From: Octopus sinensis
Taxonomy: Eukaryota
DNA: 64,000 nucleotides
Assembly (NCBI RefSeq): GCF_006345805.1
Contig: NC_043008.1
Location: 23,746,001-23,810,000 of the forward strand
Reading direction: 5' to 3'
Both the position numbers and the translations under genes were made by a program. Under the pieces are notes generated by a model. That model did not search any database. It had not been told where the DNA came from and saw only the letters and a list, made by a program, of their open reading frames with translations. This document shows, piece after piece, positions 19,321-64,000 of this stretch (within the stretch, counting starts at the first letter, position 1; each line of letters starts with the position of its first letter).

Positions 19321-22300
19321 TATGTTTGACTTTTGCTTTATATTTGTACAAGTTGGCTCCAAGTCTCAACCAGAGACCTCAAGAGACAACAGGGTTGGAA
19401 GTTCATGTTGTTGTTATGCCTAGTGTGCCATATATTTGGGGGGTGGGGATGTTGTACTAATGAATGTCTAAAAAAAAACGTTTTTTTTTTTAAACCGAAA
19501 ATTATGTTTGTTTTAAACCTTGATATTACATAGAGAGTATTTTGCGTAGGATATGAGCAGTTCCCATGAGCACTATCTTTTGAACTTCTGCCATTTTGGG
19601 GTTTCCTGGTATCTGAGTTAGGTAGCTATCAGCCCTTTTGCTATCATTCCCAGGGCACCTATGACAACAGGTATTGTTTTAGTCTTCAGCTTCCACATTT
19701 TGCTGATTTCTATTTCAAGATCTTTATATTTGCTCAGTTTTTGGTAGGTCTTGACAGATATGTTTATATCGATTGGGACAGTCATATCAATGAGGAGGCA
19801 TGTTCTTTGTTTGAAGTCGTTCAATATGATGTCTGGCCTATTTGCATCTATCTTCCTGTCAGTTTGAATGGTGAAGTTCCAGAGGAGTGAGATGTGGTCA
19901 TTTTCAAGCACTGGGGGTGGTTTGTGTTCCCACCAGTTTTTTTCATGGGGCAAATCCAGGTTTTTACAGATTACCCAGTGAATATATTGTGCAGCTCTAT
20001 CGTGCCTGTTGAGATACTCTGTAGGCGCTAGAAGACTGCACTTGGAGACCACATGGTCAATGGTTTCATTTTGTTGCTTGCATACACGACACGTTGGACT
20101 GCTTCTGATCTTTAATATGTTGGCCTGGTAGTTTATTGTTGGTAGGCATTGATCTTGAGCTGCTATGATAACCCCTCTGTTTCAGATTTTAAGCCAGAGG
20201 CCATTAGCCATTGATGGGTCAGGGCTTTGTTCATATCTGCATTATTCGCTCTCTTTGGGTATTTGCCATAGAGAGGTTTTTCTTGCCATTTATTATTCAG
20301 AATATCTAAGGCCGCAGTTTTGGCACGGGTTTTCATGCGCCTAGCTTTTTCTGTGCTTGTTTCTTATATATCTATCTCTAATTCCGAAATTGGTTGTATT
20401 CGGAATTCACTTAGATATTCCTTTGCCTGTTTTGTGACTGAGTATGATGCTTTCTTGTTTTCATGTTTTGAGACAAGTTTTAACATCCAGTCCTCAGAGT
20501 TTTTCAGGTAGGTGTCTAGGCCAATTGTAGCAATCTTCATTGTTATTGCCAGTTGCAAAAGACCACGGCCTCCCTCTTTTCTTGGCAGATAGAGTCGTTC
20601 TGTATCTGCCTTAGGGTGGTGCATTCTATGCATTGTCGACAGTTTCCTTATTTTTCTGTCGAGCTGACATATTTCAGTAATTGACCAGTTAACAATATTG
20701 AAACTGTAAGTCACGACTGGTATAGCTAATGCATTGATCGCTTCGATCCTGTTTCTTGCATTCAGCTCTGTCTTGAGTATTGCTCTCACTCTTCGATAGC
20801 ATTCTCTCCTGATCCTTTCCTTCATCTCTGAATGCCTTATTCCGTTCCCTTCAATTACCCCTAGGTACTTGTAGCTCTCCGCTGGGTCTAGTTCTTTTAT
20901 TACATTCTGTTGGTCAAGGTTAACGTTAGATGTTTCTGTCATTTTTCCTTTGATAAAGGTAGCCTTTGCACATTTATCGAGGCCGAATTGCATTCTGATG
21001 TCGTCACTGAATTGTTTGACTATCGCTAGTAAGCCCTTGAGTTGTTGATCATTTTTTGCAAAAAGCTTTAAATCATCCATGTAAACGAGATGATTAATAT
21101 TTTTATCAAACATTTTATACCCGTACTGCGCGTCATTGAGCAGCTTTGAGAGAGGTATTAAGGATAAACAAAAGAGGAGTGGTGACAGTGAGTCACCCTG
21201 GAAAATGCCGCACGAAATTTTTACATCACCAGCATTTAGGGATTCACTGTCACTGTTCAGAGTTAGTGTGGTTCTCCATGATCTCATACTTACAGTCAGG
21301 AAGTTTCGCAGAGTTGGTGCTATCTTATACATTTCAAGGCATTTCCTAATCCAGCTATGTGGTAGGCTATCAAAAGCCTTTTTATAGTCTATCCAGGCTA
21401 TTGATAAGTTTTTGTGTCGTTTGTGACAATCTTCTAAGATCATCTTATTGATGAGTAGTTGGTCTTTACAGCCGTAGGATCCACGTTTACATCCTTTCTG
21501 TTCATTAGGGAATATGCTGCTGTCTGTTAAAAAACTATAGGTATATTCCGTCAGGACAGATGTTAGTGTTTTGTACATAGTTGTTAAGCAGGTTATGGGT
21601 CTATAGTTCTTTGGTTCATTTGTTTCTTCACTTTTTGGAAGCAGGAATGTTAACCCATTAACTAGCCAAGGAGGCATCCTACTACGGTGTTGCAAAACAT
21701 CATTGTACAGTTCTGTTAGCAGTTCATGGCTCTCTGGGAAGGCATTCAGCCAGAAGTTAGGAATCTTATCCTTTCCTGGAGACTTCCATTTGCTTGACCT
21801 CCTGAGAGCAGATGTTATATCTTCTACCTTGACACCCTCCCAATTTTGCTCTTCTAAGGGTCCAGTTCTGTAGATATCCTGTCAATCCAGGGGGCCTTTT
21901 CGCTGTGTGTTTTTTCTACTGCCCAGATTTTATTCCAAAATCTCTGCACTTCTTCTTTTGATGGTACAGACCCTGCAGTAAACGCTGTTTTTCCTATCTT
22001 CCTGTAAAAATTCTTGATGCTATTTTTGAACATGTTGTTGTCCTTGAAAAATCTAACACGCTTTTCATACCTCGCTATGCGGGCAGCTTTGGCAGATACC
22101 TTTTGTTTGATGGTTTCTATGGTGGCATCAATATCAAGTATAGTTTTCATATTGTATTTTTCAGTAATTTTTGGGTTTTTGTAGGTTTGGTAGTCCTGTG
22201 AGCCTTAAGGTTTTTCAAATATTCAATGTCAGATCTAAATATTTTAATTTGTTGTTGCAGACGCTCTTGCCAAGAAGGCTTTTTGTGGGACTGTTGCCGT

Positions 22301-55765: not shown

Positions 55766-57806
55766 TAGGCGCAGGAGTGGTTGTGTGGTAAGTAGCTTGC
55801 TTACTTCCCATGAGTCTTTGGTGTCAGTGTACGCATGCGTCATTGTGTTGTGCACTATAGAAGATAGTTGGCGGCGTTTAACCAGCGAAAAAGTAGCTGC
55901 TGTAAGGTAAGGCTTTTGTCTCTTGGATCCAGTGGGGGTTGTTGTCTGTGGTTATATTTTTACAAACGAGAAGTCCTTACTAGATTCAGGACTTTGGTCT
56001 GCTTGCAGTTCAGCAATATTGTTCACATTAAGTGAAAGTTATTTCTCATTGTGGGAAGTATAGTTTGGGGGCGTATCCTGCCACCAAAAGTTGTTCACTG
56101 TTTGTGAATAGTGTGTGCTTTTACAGCAACGTTTACCAATAATTAGAAAGCTGTATTTCAAGTGGAGCAGTCCAGGTTGTAATCGGAGTACCATAGGGCT
56201 TGGTGTACCTGAATGCCCTGAAGATTTTTTTTATATCTCTGGGGGTGTCCAATATGCAACGGTGTGGTTGCTTTCTGACACCCCAGTAGAGGCTCACAGT
56301 TTTGAGAGCTAGCCCTTTGAGGGTAGAGAAATTTTGTTTCTTCCCACTTATTATGGGAAAAAAATTGACGAGTTCCTGGGTCTGTGGTTTGACACCCAGA
56401 ATTGAACCCGAGTGGATAGAGAATACTATCCGTCGGGGTCTGGGTGGAAACGGAGCCAGGCTTCTCAATGTGAAAATTCTTCCTGCGGCTGATTGGGTTG
56501 GGTCAAAGCTGTTTTGACCCTGTGGATCCAATCAGCCATGAATCTGGTTATGCTAGATTTTTTGAAAATGGCCGGGTGCAGGTACCCGGTGATTCTTGAA
56601 GGTCGCCCCGCACCAGGTGTCATCGATGCCTGGAGCCTGGCCTTATAAAGGAAAACTGGCCTCAGGAACAAAACAAAGTCCTGGAGAATTTAATTGAGAC
56701 CTCTGTAGAAGAAGGATCGAAGGAGGTCGAGGAGGCGGAGGACTCCTCAAAGAAGGGCCGCAAGAGGAAGAAGGTGAGCAATAATGGGTGCTCACCAAAG
56801 GATCCTAGGGATCAGGGAGGGGAGGCGAGGCGAATCTCCCGGTCACGGAGGAGACGCACCCTCCCTCAATTGAGAAGAAAAAAGAGGAAGAGGAACGGGA
56901 CATTGCCGGCAGTTGGTGACATAGCACCGGACTGTCCCGGAACCTTGCCGGTAGGGGTTGTGCCGTCGGCAATGGAAGAGGCACCATTGGAGGTAATTGT
57001 GCCGCCAATGGTAGAATTGACTACCTCGAACCGGAGGAAGACGAACTATTGGTCTTTTTCTACAGAGGTGGAGAGGTAGAAGAGGTGGTGGAAAAGCATC
57101 ATAAGGGAGTACCTTTCACCTTCACACAGGATCCAGAATGGCCTGTGTAGATAGCTGTGGAGGTCATAACGTTGCCCGTGATGCGTAGGCTGGAGGGACT
57201 TAATGAGGAATATCGCTAGTGGCCGGGCGACGCCGACTCGGAGCCCGTCTTGGTCTTGAATGAGGCGTGGGTGATGGCGGAGTATACGGGCACAAGCGAT
57301 GTTGGGGAGTAATAGTGACAAAAGGTTGAAAAACCTCAGTGTTATAATGTTTATTGTATAATGTTAAATGTTTATTGTATTTTATTGTGTTTAAGAGGCT
57401 TAACGCCCCAATTTTTAAATGGACTATTAAGTCCAATAATTGTAAACTGAAGTAAGAGGTTCAATATCTCGTATTGTCTTTTTTTTTGTGAAAAAAAAGA
57501 GAGAAGAGAATAATGTTTTAGAGAAGCAAAATATGGGCGGGCATTTTTTGTCTTCTCCCATTAATATCATCCTTTTTTCATCCCTCACCTCATTAATGCT
57601 TTTCTCCGGCCCGCAAGCTACTCTGTGTCATGCCTTCATGGCAAAATCTTTGAAATAAAGTAGCTTGCTTACAAACCACGTGGTTTCGGGTTCAGTTCCA
57701 CTGTGTGGCACGTTGGGCAAGTGTCTTCTACTATAGCCTCGGGCCAACCAAAGCCTTGTGAGTGGATTTTGAAGACGGAAACTGAAAGAAGCCCGTTGTA
57801 TTTACG

Positions 57807-59049: not shown

Positions 59050-59658
59050 CTATATTACTATATTACATCTCAAGGGAACATCAGTGGAAAGCACAGGTAG
59101 GAATTATTGGTTCAAATTTTTTGGGGCATTTGTAGTACACAGGATCTGCCCTGAAATGAACGGAGTAAAAGATAGAATAAAGGGAATAATATGAGTTAGG
59201 ATGGGAACCAAGTATGACAAAAATGAGTCTGGTGCTTTATTCCATGAGGACAGTTATCACGAGTTCATCGAGGCCGCTGGAGAGAACGTATTATATCACA
59301 GATGTCGGCTGATAGATCGTCCATCTCGCTTATTACGAAGATCTGATGGACAGAATAGACTATATCTAAAATTGTGGAAAAAGTGTCAAAAAAAAAAAAG
59401 AAAAAACAGTTAGCGAAATGTATTTTTGAAATTCTGTGAAATTTATGTTTTGTAAATTTTGTGAATTCAGTAGTAATTTTTGTGAAAACCATTATGGAAA
59501 AAGGCTAACGAAATGTAACCACCCGATTTCGGGGATCTTTTCATGACTCATTATTTTAAAAATTTTCTTCGTCTTATTTCATCCTCTTTTACTATTTTTA
59601 AGTTCCCCGACTGTATCGCCCCCATCTATATTTAGTCCTTTATGTATAATAAAGAAAT
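59050..59658 (+). mobile_element. probable 3' fragment of a related ORF1-only element
   Basis: KGII*VRMGTKYD resembles KGVIQVKLENGTFD of the 59677 element; tail tttagtcctttatgtataataaagaaat. Confidence 0.5.
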
Positions 59659-59676
59659 CATTCGAAATTTGTCCTT

Positions 59677-61265
59677 CGTGGTGTGCAATTGGTTATTGTT
59701 TGAGCTTTGCGTTTTGTTTTGTTGTTGGATTGTGTGTTGCAGAAGTTGTTATTGTTGAAAGTACTATTGTAGTTTAATTTTGAAAATTATTTTGTAGCTA
59801 CCCTTGCGGATATGTAAACAACGAGTTACGCACAGGCTGGAGGCAAAAGCCTGTCGGCCGACATGTTGCAGCTCAAAGAAGTATTAATCGAGAAGGAAGG
59901 TTTGAAAAAATATTTCGAAAATTTCAAGGAGGGAGATTGCTTGCGAATCACACCGCCTGAGGAAGACGCAGAAAAAGCGAGGAAAAAAATCATTGTATAT
60001 AGAACGTGGAGTGTGGCCAACAAGAAAATAGAAGTGGCAGAAACAGACGACAATGAGGAATGTCTAACGGAAATTAAAAACAGAACGACCTTCTACGCAA
60101 GAGGAAGGAAGTTCGCCACCGTGGAGGTGCGGTTTGAAAGTGAGGAGGAGACCAAGAAACCCGCTACCACGATATTAAGAACAGCTAGGTGGATATTTCT
60201 TCCGACCTATTGTGGAAAAATGAAGGTGAAAATAGGAAAGGTGCTACAGGAGATGGAGGTAGAGAGACTTGTAGCAGCTATAATCTACAATTGTAAGGAG
60301 GAGGTGGACATACTCAAGGTTGAAAAATCGAGAGACGTCAACTGGTGGGGTTATGGTATGGAAGCACTGATACATATAACCCTGCCAGATCTACACAACA
60401 TTACAGAAGAGTTGGTGCTCCCCGACGAAACCCGACCGAGAGTCGTGGTGGAGGGGAGACCACCAGTATGTTATAACTGTAAAAGAAGGGGACATATGCA
60501 AGCAAGGTGTCCCCTAGGAAAAGTGCAGGCAGAAGAGGAGGAAATGTGCAGCGACGCAGCGAGAGAGGATGAAGAAGAAAAAGAGGAAGAGGAAAGAGTA
60601 GATGAAACAACGGCAGACAGAAAGAGAACAAGGGTGGAGTCACCACCAAAAAGCCCAAAGAAAAGTAAAGTAGAAAATGAAGGAAGAAAGACAACAGCAA
60701 GTGAAAAAAGTACAGAGATTCGAACGCAGGAACTGAAGACAGTAACAATGAGTGAAGAAGGTAAAGTTAAAAAAGAGAAATGCGAGGAATGGATGAGGAA
60801 CGCGTTGGAGAGAATGCATTATGTAAAACAAACAGGATGACCTACGGGAGAGAATATAAGAAGGATAACATTTTATGAAAAAAATATGGCGATTGAAAAA
60901 AGATTTACAAAAACAAAAGGAGTGATACAAGTGAAATTAGAAAACGGCACGTTCGATCCAAGCGCTAGAGCGGTGTTAACAGAAAAAGAAAAAATAGACA
61001 AATTGGTAGAGACTTTTCAAGAGAAGAATAAAATAAGTAAAATAAATATTCGCTATGATAGCCTGCCCAACGTGATTGGGATGGAGGATGTCATCGAATC
61101 TGATAGATAAGTGGAACAGTTACAAAATGTATAAGCCATTCCATTTCCCATTACACATAACTCATTTCATATTCATTATTTGTTTTATGTACCCCAAATT
61201 TTGCATTGTTTTGTATGTAAATTGTAATGTCCTTTCTCTATATTAACCCGTCATGGGTAATAAAA
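59677..61265 (+). mobile_element. ORF1-only retroposon (~1.6 kb) between 22-bp direct repeats
   Basis: aaatcattcgaaatttgtcctt at 59655-59676 and 61266-61287; single ORF; tail aacccgtcatgggtaataaaaaaat. Confidence 0.8.
59812..61110 (+). pseudogene. L1/Tx1-type Gag-like ORF1 with CCHC zinc knuckle (~430 codons, two premature stops)
   Basis: ATG 59812, TAA 59815, ORF 59863-60840, in-frame continuation to 61110; SYAQA, RGRKFATVEVRF, VVVEGRPPVCYNCKRRGHMQARC. Confidence 0.82.
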
Positions 61266-61269
61266 AAAT

Positions 61270-62430
61270 CATTCGAAATTTGTCCTTTTTTGGATTCGGA
61301 CGTGGTCATTTAAGGACGGTAGGTTGCGTAGCTTCTTGTTTTACGCGTGTTTGAACACCTTGTTTCTTCTGCGCAAGCGAGTCCGTTGTCATTGTCCCCC
61401 TTGCTTGAGGGTGGGGGAAGCGTGTGATTGAAAAATAAACTGTGACGAAATTAGCTTTTCCGACATGGGTTAGTCGGAGGGTGAGCTAGTGAAGTACATA
61501 AATAGTATGGAGGAGGGATTGAGGAAGAGAGAAGCAAATGGAAAGAAGAGTTTTGCGGATGTAACCGAAACAAAAAGTCGAAATCCAGCAGTTATAAAAG
61601 TGTAGAAATATGATGCTAAGGGAGGGGCATGAAATAAGACTGACCCCTCCCGGCGAAGTAGTTCACTACGTAGAAAAGAAAAAGTGATATTTAAAACGTT
61701 CATCAAAAAGGGAAAATCCATTAACGTAGCAGAGAGGAAAGAGATTAAGAAGTGTTTGGCACCTATCTGATCGGATATAATACACCTGGCCAGGGGTGCC
61801 AAATTTGCCACCGTGGTTGTGCGTTTTTCCACAGAAGAGAAAGCCAGGCAACAGTCCGTAGCCTCAGTATCAACAGACGAAATAATCCTCCTACCCTCTT
61901 ACGTTGGAAGGCGTGCCTACAGAGTGAGGGTGGAGGAGATACCACCAGAGGTGGAGGAGATACCACCAGAGGTGTAGGTTGCCTGGCTGATAGCAGCGAT
62001 AGTGTTGGGCCTGGAGGAGAAAGTGATAGTCCTCCAGGCCGTGAGAGAGTACCGGCGAGAAACCCGATAGGGTAGCGCCTGGAAATGGTGATCCAAGCAG
62101 CCCCAGGGACCGTGGACAATACTGTGGATACCATGAAGAAAGTTGAGGGTAATGGTGGCGAGCAGGAGGCCGAAGTGATTCAAGTGTGGCCAGATTGGCC
62201 ACATAAGAGCCGAATACCTTCCCCTCCTGCAAAAGTACGAAAAGTAACCTCGGTGGAGAACGCACCTTGACTCGAGACGCCAAAGGTGGAAGAAGACTGA
62301 GGCAAGGAACTGGGTGAACAGGTGGAAACAACAGAGAAATAGACGGAGACGACCAAAAGGAAAAACAGAAAGAAAAAGAGAAAGAACCTCACAGGTGATG
62401 ATGATCCCCAACCCGATCTATCCCTACACC
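61270..62430 (+). mobile_element. 5' UTR and decayed Gag-like ORF1 of a related element
   Basis: KSFADV, LARGAKFATVVVRFSTEE, VRVEEIPPEV; 21-bp tandem duplication at ~61930-61974. Confidence 0.7.
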
Positions 62431-62439
62431 ACTCTGCCC

Positions 62440-64000
62440 CATTCTCGGGCTGAGAATCTTCCAAGGGAAGGTGTGCCAGAAGAAAGTAATTCAACAACGC
62501 GGGTTGATAAACCATAAGACGTGTGGCCAGAACCCCCCTCCCCCCGAAAATAACCATAGCGAGGTTCCTTCCACAGTTGAATTGGAACAGTCAAAAAGAC
62601 TGATAGGCGCGAAGAGGACAAAGGTTAAGTGGCCGAAAGCAAATGACGCAGCGAGTTATAAAAAATTTGACGACGAGGTAGCAAGAATGACCAAATTCAA
62701 AGGCGACGACGAACAAAATCTCGAAAACCTGGCTAATACAATCTACCAGGAAGGAGAGAAAAGATTTGGACTGGAAACAACAGGGAAGGTAGAATCAACG
62801 ACAAAGAGAGGACAATCGAGGAGAGAAAGACGGATAACAAAGATTCGAGAAGAGAAGAAAAAACTCAGAACGAAATGGAGGGATGCAAAGGAGAAGGAAA
62901 GAGAAGGACTAAAGCAGCTATATGAAGAGATAAAAAAGAGGCATCGAGATCTGCTAAGAAAACAAAGAAGGAGGAGCAGAAGAAAGAAGAGAGAAAAAAA
63001 CTATCGTAGATTTGTGAACAATCCCTATCAATATGCGAAACATCTATTTACTGAAAGTAAAAGCGGAAAATTGGATTGCACGAAAGAAGAGCTCGAACAA
63101 CATCTGAAAGAGACATACAGCGACTCTGACAGAAATGAAGTACTCCCAGAAGTGCACGGACTGAAGAAATCACCTGACCCAAAAGTACCATTTGATTTGA
63201 GCGACATCAAATGGAAAGAAATGGATGAGTTCAAAAGGAAAGCAAGAGCAAAAAGTGCACCAGGGAACGATGAAGTGAGCTACAAGGTATACAAATATTG
63301 CCCGAAATTACGATTGCAGCTGTTTGCACTGATAAGAGAAATGTGGAAGAAGAAAGATGTAGCGGAGCGTTGGTGTATAGCCGAAGGTATCTATCTACCT
63401 AAAGAAAAAGAGGCAAAAACACTAGGCCAATTTAGACCGATTTCACTTCTATATGCAGACAGGAAAATCATGTTCGGAATAATTGCTAGACGAATCATAA
63501 GAATCGTACAGCATAACGGATACTTTAATGAAGCGATTCAAAAAGCAGGAATCCCCGGAATCCCTGGGTGCATAGAACACGCATTTTCCATCTGGGAAGC
63601 CATCACTTGTGCAAAACAAATGAAGAAAAACCTGTATATTGTTTGACTAGATCTTGCCAATGATTATGGATCTGTTCCGCACGCAATAATATAAACAGCG
63701 ATGGACTTCTTTTGGATTCCAAAAGATGTTCAACGAATGCTCATGTCGTACTACGACAACCTGAGGATGAGATTTACAGCAGGAAAGTTCACAACGGTGT
63801 GGCAACGGCTTGAAATAGGTATTGCAGCCGGATGCACTATATCAGTCATCTTATTCGTGCTAGTCATGGAAATGCTACTCAGATCTACAAACTGTGAGAA
63901 AGCTGTTACAAAGACACCATTAAGGGCTTTTATGGACGACGTAACTATATTATCGGAAAGTAGAGAAGCAGCAGAGGGAACGTTAGAGCGGTTGAACGAA
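62440..64000 (+). mobile_element. HERO-like RLE LINE, 5' part with RT, runs off the window
   Basis: GLRIFQGKVC zinc-finger remnant, KVKWPKAND, KARAKSAPGND, FRPISLL, QKAGIPGIPGCIEH, LDLANDYGSVPH, GIAAGCTIS, AFMDD; in-frame stops. Confidence 0.9.

Follow-up and report, generated by a model that had tools for sequence, protein, structure and literature searches.

The 64,000-nucleotide stretch of the Octopus sinensis genome analysed here (RefSeq assembly GCF_006345805.1, contig NC_043008.1, positions 23,746,001 to 23,810,000, forward strand; hereafter the window) contains, at positions 59655-61287, a decayed copy of an old lineage of retroposons lacking long terminal repeats (non-LTR) that carries open reading frame 1 (ORF1) only and is derived from long interspersed nuclear elements (LINEs) of the L1/Tx1 type. 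Our overall reading, to which we give a probability of about 0.8, is that members of this lineage supply their own packaging protein, are copied in trans by the ORF2 protein of partner elements, and are often targeted to sites just upstream of hammerhead-like motifs.

The ORF1-only unit and its family

The unit is bounded by a direct repeat of 22 bp that has two exact matches in the window against 0.01 expected, and it consists of the following features.

59655..59676 (+): left target-site duplication, 22 bp, exact direct repeat
59677..59811 (+): 5' untranslated region (UTR), ~135 nt, T/G-rich, its initial ~65 nt unlike the closest relatives
59812..61110 (+): ORF1, 432 codons, a single reading frame broken by stops at codons 2 and 343
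59959..60465 (+): two predicted RNA recognition motif (RRM)-like domains (beta-alpha-beta-beta-alpha-beta), from the AlphaFold model of relative L253, mapped by alignment
60466..60513 (+): one CCHC zinc knuckle (Pfam PF00098, 21.7 bits against a cut-off of 20.8)
60781..61107 (+): C-terminal domain, predicted as a helix and a ferredoxin-like fold, after a charged linker
61111..61265 (+): 3' UTR, ~155 nt, ending in a TGTCC box, a hairpin and AATAAA
61266..61287 (+): right target-site duplication, 22 bp, exact direct repeat

An earlier note on this DNA had described a perfect 22-bp bounding repeat, a short 5' UTR, a 3' UTR, and the lack of an endonuclease or reverse transcriptase (RT); all of these hold, and neither enzyme was found between the two repeats. 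It had also described a CCHC-containing ORF1 of about 430 codons, which is right for the length and for the knuckle, but the frame is not intact: codon 2 reads TAA and codon 343 reads TGA, both single C-to-T differences from other copies, as is expected from decay. The A-rich tail of that description is present as AATAAA plus a few A (61259-61268, with AATAAA at 61259-61264), but it is short and preceded by a hairpin with a 4-bp stem (ACCC-GTCAT-GGGT, 61246-61258).

A DNA search of the genome with the unit gave 341 candidates, of which 40 were scored and yielded 62 matches. Five other copies align over at least 1470 nt at 74-88% identity, several of the aligned copies carry their own duplications of 11-18 bp, and the duplications found at unit distance range from about 9 to 22 bp across the examined copies. 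With the C-terminal domain as a protein query, 1043 candidates were obtained, of which 150 were scored, and 90 loci taken from this list were examined (30 returned and 60 fetched, some overlapping). An apurinic endonuclease (APE) follows the C-terminal domain on the same strand in none of the 117 domain copies, each with at least 420 nt downstream and some in overlapping loci; the sole APE match near ORF1-only copies, at L316, is antisense. The tail is recognised by rule in 95 of the 117, and most of the other 22 have, as judged by eye, a degenerate tail or a later insertion. The case that the earlier note had set against its own proposal, in which the other copies run from ORF1 into an ORF2 with APE and RT, thus fails, and its claim that the element moves as a unit is borne out by dispersed full-length copies with their own target duplications and a conserved 3' end.

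The family also contains intact genes. A young family has uninterrupted ORFs of ~440 amino acids (aa) in 1.7-kb head-to-tail units, with a junction duplication of its own in each array, and 18 distinct uninterrupted ORFs of at least 420 aa were seen in 60 loci, many in head-to-tail arrays. In octopus proteomes, ORFs of this kind carry annotations as host “CCHC-type domain” genes, and the named homologues of ORF1 come from Octopus species and Argonauta. The ORF1 of the lineage is under purifying selection. The ratios of nonsynonymous to synonymous substitutions (dN/dS) were computed pairwise with NG86 among 12 copies, separately for the core and the C-terminal domain. Between subfamilies, the ratio is mostly 0.05-0.3, well below 1, the outcome that the earlier note had proposed to test for. 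For the core it is 0.05-0.25 where dS is measurable; dS is saturated in many pairs.

ORF1 protein, ancestry and candidate partners

Autonomous elements are abundant in the same genome, with an ORF1 that is 36-38% identical over ~210-230 aa, followed by Exo_endo_phos, RVT_1 and zf-RVT domains. The closest solved relative of the partner ORF2 is L1 ORF2p (E 3.5e-31). With an ORF2 composed of APE, RT and a C-terminal zf-RVT, and an ORF1 protein (ORF1p) of type I, the partners belong to the L1/Tx1 group. The Tx1 label rests on the type I ORF1 and on target preference, the 120 listed homologues being without named Tx1 references.

Type I ORF1p is defined by the combination of RRM and CCHC (PMC5203782), and on its predicted structure the ORF1p of the unit is of this type. 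The AlphaFold model of the intact relative L253, which is 56% identical to the unit (mean predicted local distance difference test score 72), begins with two predicted beta-alpha-beta-beta-alpha-beta domains; the knuckle comes next, then a linker without order and finally another domain of that kind. The first two domains resemble proteins with tandem RRMs: their top Foldseek matches are IMP3 RRM12 and SFPQ/NONO (E 3e-5 to 1e-4) and the best VIA match is a nucleolin RRM (Z 8.5), while Pfam detects zf-CCHC only.

Fold searches with the C-terminal domain gave generic ferredoxin-like matches only (best Z 4.8, Foldseek E>0.02). The autonomous ORF1s carry a similar segment ahead of ORF2, and an hhalign comparison of the C-terminal domains of ORF1-only and autonomous elements, with 11 hand-picked and hand-cleaned autonomous rows, gave a probability of 65% (E 6e-5, 61 columns) against 1.3% for a reversed control. 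An earlier profile-profile run that included off-frame rows gave 1.5%, and a profile of the ORF1-only C-terminal domains had no match among the autonomous elements at E<0.01 (E 0.03 in a small set). We grade the sequence support as moderate, and the domain is likely ancestral and homologous to that of the autonomous ORF1s. The C-terminal extension of the earlier note accordingly appears to be common to the autonomous ORF1s and not added, and the gain of a new domain is not supported.

To place the lineage, we inferred a phylogeny of the ORF1 core from 33 rows, which remained from 88 after removal of unclassified, short and heavily broken sequences and of 22 named near-redundant or long-branch rows; a tree of all 88 rows was also built. 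In the 33-row tree, a branch with support of 100/97 sets 20 ORF1-only rows, the window copy among them, apart from all nine autonomous rows. Another four ORF1-only rows fall beside or among the autonomous rows, including those of a second ORF1-only family to which a neighbour of the unit, element C, belongs. A single origin of all ORF1-only rows is neither demonstrated nor rejected by the approximately unbiased test (p 0.052). The ORF1-only structure probably arose more than once. Three proteins of O. bimaculoides (P0001, P0009 and P0011) have at their end a C-terminal domain of the ORF1-only type, which suggests that the lineage predates the split from that species. More distant RRM-CCHC homologues of ORF1 (P0101, P0110, P0134 and P0031) occur in the same assemblies as related ORF2s of 43-49% identity, and the lineage may therefore reach beyond the octopods.

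In all families, ORF1-only and ORF2-coding alike, the 3' end is made up of a pyrimidine box followed by a hairpin and AATAAAG. A GC hairpin precedes AATAAA in 38 of 45 distinct ORF1-only tails, compared with 89 of 1228 background sites, and the stems compensate (e.g. AGGC/GCCT, GCCC/GGGT and ACCC/GGGT). The exact tail of the window copy was found on one other insertion, which is 5'-truncated and likewise followed by AAATCATTCG, and 13 of 25 relatives of this insertion have an ORF2 upstream (ORF2 family Q). The tail of the young ORF1-only family resembles that of a Q subfamily. These common tails, together with the common targets described below, suggest that mobilisation in trans by a partner ORF2 is likely. 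The window copy has another tail than the copies at hammerhead-like sites, nearly that of family Q, and was likely inserted by that family at a site starting AAATCATTCG.

Target sites and proposed routes of insertion

The insertion site of the unit's closest relatives is ...cgac|AACCGGTGATTGTC, which precedes CTGATGA by a few bases and belongs to a tandem repeat with a 353-bp period (seen in L280) and 7531 candidates in the genome; 16 of 20 fetched loci of this repeat are empty sites. A junction set selected by protein and not by target comprised 89 distinct junctions, of which 56 are terminal, five loci having been dropped where the matched AATAAA was not the element end. A type I hammerhead-like core lies on the same strand 24-46 nt after AATAAA at 23 of the 56 terminal junctions, against 9 of 1181 background sites, and no antisense core was found within 150 nt of any of the 56. 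In a second ORF2 family, P, a hammerhead-like core follows 14 of 24 tails.

Nine divergent families can be told apart among the target motifs, and stem I covaries across them. The motifs also have a stem II, a loop III that is palindromic and a UC site, and they contain the elements that define a type I hammerhead, namely the CUGANGA...GAAA core, stems I and II, and a NUH site. In the 26 hammerhead-like motifs that were parsed, stem II has 3 bp in 23, and variants of the U3-A8 core are present. In stem I, 36 of 45 pairs form across the nine families, compared with 29.3 with shuffled arms (8 of 10000). We regard the targets as putative type I hammerheads of retrozyme-like repeats. Non-LTR retrozymes have been described as tandem repeats of 150-450 bp that carry a type I hammerhead with a short helix III closed by a loop of palindromic sequence (PMC7229834), and the octopus targets match this description for invertebrates. 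The full set of retrozyme-type features (short, high-copy, tandem, one putative hammerhead per monomer) was found for one target family only. Unlike in the retrozyme elements themselves, the hammerhead repeat is the landing site in octopus, and its cleavage is putative. The duplicated sequences differ between target families, and one subfamily uses several unrelated targets.

Further associations were noted among these loci. With one candidate query, no Penelope ORF was seen to be linked to the hammerhead targets; a 376-aa ORF at L205:6625-7755 resembles a Penelope-type RT by eye, with no Pfam RT match. At L049/L085, one hammerhead-type repeat is flanked by an ORF1-only copy and by the 3' end of an ORF2-coding element, in inverted orientation, and L255 has a similar inverted pair. 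The young ORF1-only family often lies in a ~45-bp tandem repeat with hairpins and CTCTGACCACACAG (3' flanks of L244, L246, L247, L250, L256, L257, L261 and L309), remnants of which are carried at the 5' end of young-family copies inserted elsewhere (L245, L258 and L260). A young autonomous family, T, occupies (CT)n microsatellites at L129-L133 and is in tandem at L129/L130.

We propose that an ORF1-only element makes its own ORF1p, which would coat the RNA of the element; Kojima has proposed that ORF1p multimerises with partner proteins (PMC5786205). The partner ORF2p would dock on the 3' tail and copy the RNA in trans via target-primed reverse transcription. The borrowed ORF2 would recognise the conserved hammerhead core, or something bound there, and nick an A/T-rich spot some 15-40 nt upstream of it. 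Site choice is ascribed to the core because the target families differ from one another in the duplicated sequence itself. The window copy, whose tail is nearly that of Q, would have been the last insertion in a stack of related elements.

Several observations weigh against this reading. Hammerheads are lacking at 33 of the 56 terminal junctions, six of the 14 matches of family P are near-identical and probably duplicated loci, family Q is at a hammerhead-like core in 1 of 25 cases, and the target of the window copy itself has no hammerhead-like motif in view. Rfam found no hammerhead at two target sites and gave one sub-threshold match, away from a junction. Targets folded in isolation show no advantage over shuffled sequences (z -1.1 to +1.0); the case for a ribozyme therefore depends on the core, the stems and the covariation. 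The GC-hairpin rule is passed by only 6 of 23 ORF2 tails, since the family P stem is A/T-rich, and families U2 and V use the same targets as P without its hairpin sequence. Because the sample of autonomous elements was drawn by similarity to a small number of queries, an autonomous member of the unit's clade could have been missed. Finally, among the closest copies dN/dS is 0.26-0.35 for the core and 0.7-1.0 for the C-terminal domain, higher values that are consistent with post-insertion decay.

Targeting might instead be guided by the flank of the element. Read-through RNA would be cut by the flanking hammerhead ~60-85 nt downstream, the trimmed 3' end would pair with the nicked target, and the copy would re-insert at sites resembling its own flank. 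The strict same-strand, upstream placement of the hammerhead-adjacent insertions (23 versus 0) fits such a route, although this bias would also follow from any asymmetric recognition of DNA. The elements stop 1-3 nt past AATAAAG and lack a long poly(A), every array has a duplication of its own that recurs within it, one subfamily has several unrelated targets, and R1Bm depends on downstream target sequence within its RNA (PMC7265360), all of which agree with flank guidance. Against it, target choice in Tx1 elements is usually attributed to the endonuclease (PMC4494074) and many junctions are without a ribozyme, and we consider it unlikely. It is equally doubtful that Tx1-type LINEs and their ORF1-only dependants parasitise retrozymes, with the hammerhead of the host repeat cleaving the read-through RNA in the flank, as a part of the elements' cycle, and the resulting 3' end guiding re-insertion upstream of hammerheads that differ widely in sequence and are unrelated to one another; if true, this would be ribozyme-assisted, RNA-guided targeting of LINEs in a system of three tiers (LINE, half-LINE and retrozyme).

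By analogy with TRE5-A, whose ORF1p binds TFIIIB (PMC5911963), the retained ORF1 protein might also tether the element to a transcription factor at the promoters of abundant small repeats and transposons, which would explain why ORF1 is retained. The variable distance (24-46 nt) and variable duplicated sequence are in line with tethering, as is the location of other ORF1-only copies, of the element C type, immediately upstream of where Tc1-like and mariner-like transposases begin (L074 and L082, labels by eye). The ORF1 of family P (L197) is far from the clade of the unit in the tree, yet the family uses the same sites, and we find tethering quite improbable. Far less credible still is that the copies derive from autonomous elements, as recurrent internal deletions or as relics truncated at the 3' end, or that they are a family of domesticated genes spread by segmental duplication. 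An ORF1-only structure that probably arose more than once, with C-family rows among autonomous rows, and the ability of unequal crossing-over to enlarge arrays would suit such origins. However, the ORF1-only copies have a conserved 3' UTR and a tail of their own, their dispersed sites carry distinct duplications, and dS is saturated with low dN between subfamilies; the lack of an autonomous row in the unit's clade and of an APE after any of the 117 domain copies largely refutes this explanation.

The surrounding array and its relation to known elements

The 2.7-Gb genome contains exactly three occurrences of the core 16-mer of the 22-bp repeat, all at this locus, and the third copy of the repeat lies 5.2 kb further downstream, past the window end; the unit is therefore one member of an array. 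Four elements are arranged in the order tail of element A, repeat, unit, repeat, element C, repeat, element D, and the neighbours inside the window are as follows.

59617..59654 (+): 3' tail of the preceding related element A (AATAAAG after a pyrimidine box and a decayed hairpin)
61288..62435 (+): element C, 5' part; decayed copy from the second ORF1-only family, its 3' end beyond the window
62436..64000 (+): RT element of the restriction-like endonuclease (RLE) type nested inside element C, left boundary approximate

Over 45 nt, the tail of element A is 84% identical to the 3' end of the unit together with the repeat, and the ORF1 profile gave no match to the body of A. The ORF1 of element C is ~31% identical to that of the unit, and its relatives L074, L082 and L089 terminate in a tail without ORF2; L074 holds two copies in tandem with a duplication that resembles that of the window (AATTCGTAATTTGG). 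In element D, a homologous ORF1 precedes APE and an ORF2 that is broken. The third repeat copy matches over 19 bp with one mismatch, and the pair around the unit shares three further bases with the start of C, which suggests that C inserted first and the unit last. A role of the repeat as a common 5' end or LTR was rejected, since other copies have other duplications and the 16-mer is confined to this array. The nested RT element, which we take to be Hero-like, was likewise rejected as the ORF2 of the unit (62405 onward), being of RLE type, nested in C and only 20-22% identical to the Tx1-type RT. Elsewhere in the window, 56000-57400 (+) contains a heavily decayed, distant ORF1 homologue with a knuckle remnant and a hairpin-like 3' end (weak profile match, E 0.04), and in 8000-32700 (-) there are several LINE fragments of other types that code for RT, among them a 505-aa ORF with RVT_1 at 20364-21881.

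LINEs with ORF1 only are a known kind, listed for the L1, Jockey and CR1 clades (PMC5786205). HAL1 is a non-autonomous derivative of the L1 group that encodes ORF1p only and has several origins (PMC5753468, PMC5786205). The earlier note had called the unit HAL1-analogous, which is apt as an analogy only, in that both are ORF1-only, non-autonomous L1-group derivatives. However, HAL1 has the mammalian type II ORF1 (Transposase_22), whereas the octopus ORF1 is of type I (RRM and CCHC) with only zf-CCHC detected by Pfam, and the octopod family is of independent origin, prefers particular targets and ends in a hairpin-AATAAAG tail instead of a long poly(A). In HeT-A and other telomeric Jockey elements of Drosophila, and in Ag-Sponge (CR1), ORF1-only lineages seed new ORF1-only families (10.1101/2025.06.09.658640). 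Like HeT-A and Ag-Sponge, the octopus family is ORF1-only and forms head-to-tail arrays with autonomous partners, but unlike those of HeT-A its insertions are dispersed, not telomeric, and flanked by target duplications, and its ancestry is L1/Tx1.

Tx1 families that target other repeats are also known: Tx1L inserts in Tx1D, Tx1-Mar in Mariner-N4, Kibi in (TC)n and Keno in U2, and for Tx1 families and SINEU the partner was inferred from the common target (PMC4494074). The octopus elements similarly insert into other repeats, with partners assigned by common target, and family T in (CT)n recalls Kibi. They differ from the families listed in the available text of that paper in their hammerhead or retrozyme targets and in having ORF1-coding dependants. 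Among the papers listed by our literature searches, none on ORF1-only Tx1 elements or on LINEs targeting hammerheads was found, although Repbase, Dfam and supplements may already contain such families. Neither theme appears in the available portions of PMC5753468, PMC10294476, PMC7229834, PMC4494074, PMC5786205, PMC5911963, PMC7265360, PMC5203782, PMC13282606, 10.64898/2026.07.22.740005 and 10.1101/2025.06.09.658640, and the main text of the 2026 O. vulgaris repeat paper lacks the terms ORF1, hammerhead and ribozyme.

To these known kinds, the octopods add a large, long-lived and probably recently active set of ORF1-only elements of Tx1-type origin. Because intact young copies and candidate partners occur in one genome, two questions become testable: why a non-autonomous element retains ORF1, and how an APE-type LINE selects its targets by a common structural motif and not by a cleavage sequence. 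A target adjacent to hammerheads would constitute a new class of safe haven for such elements.
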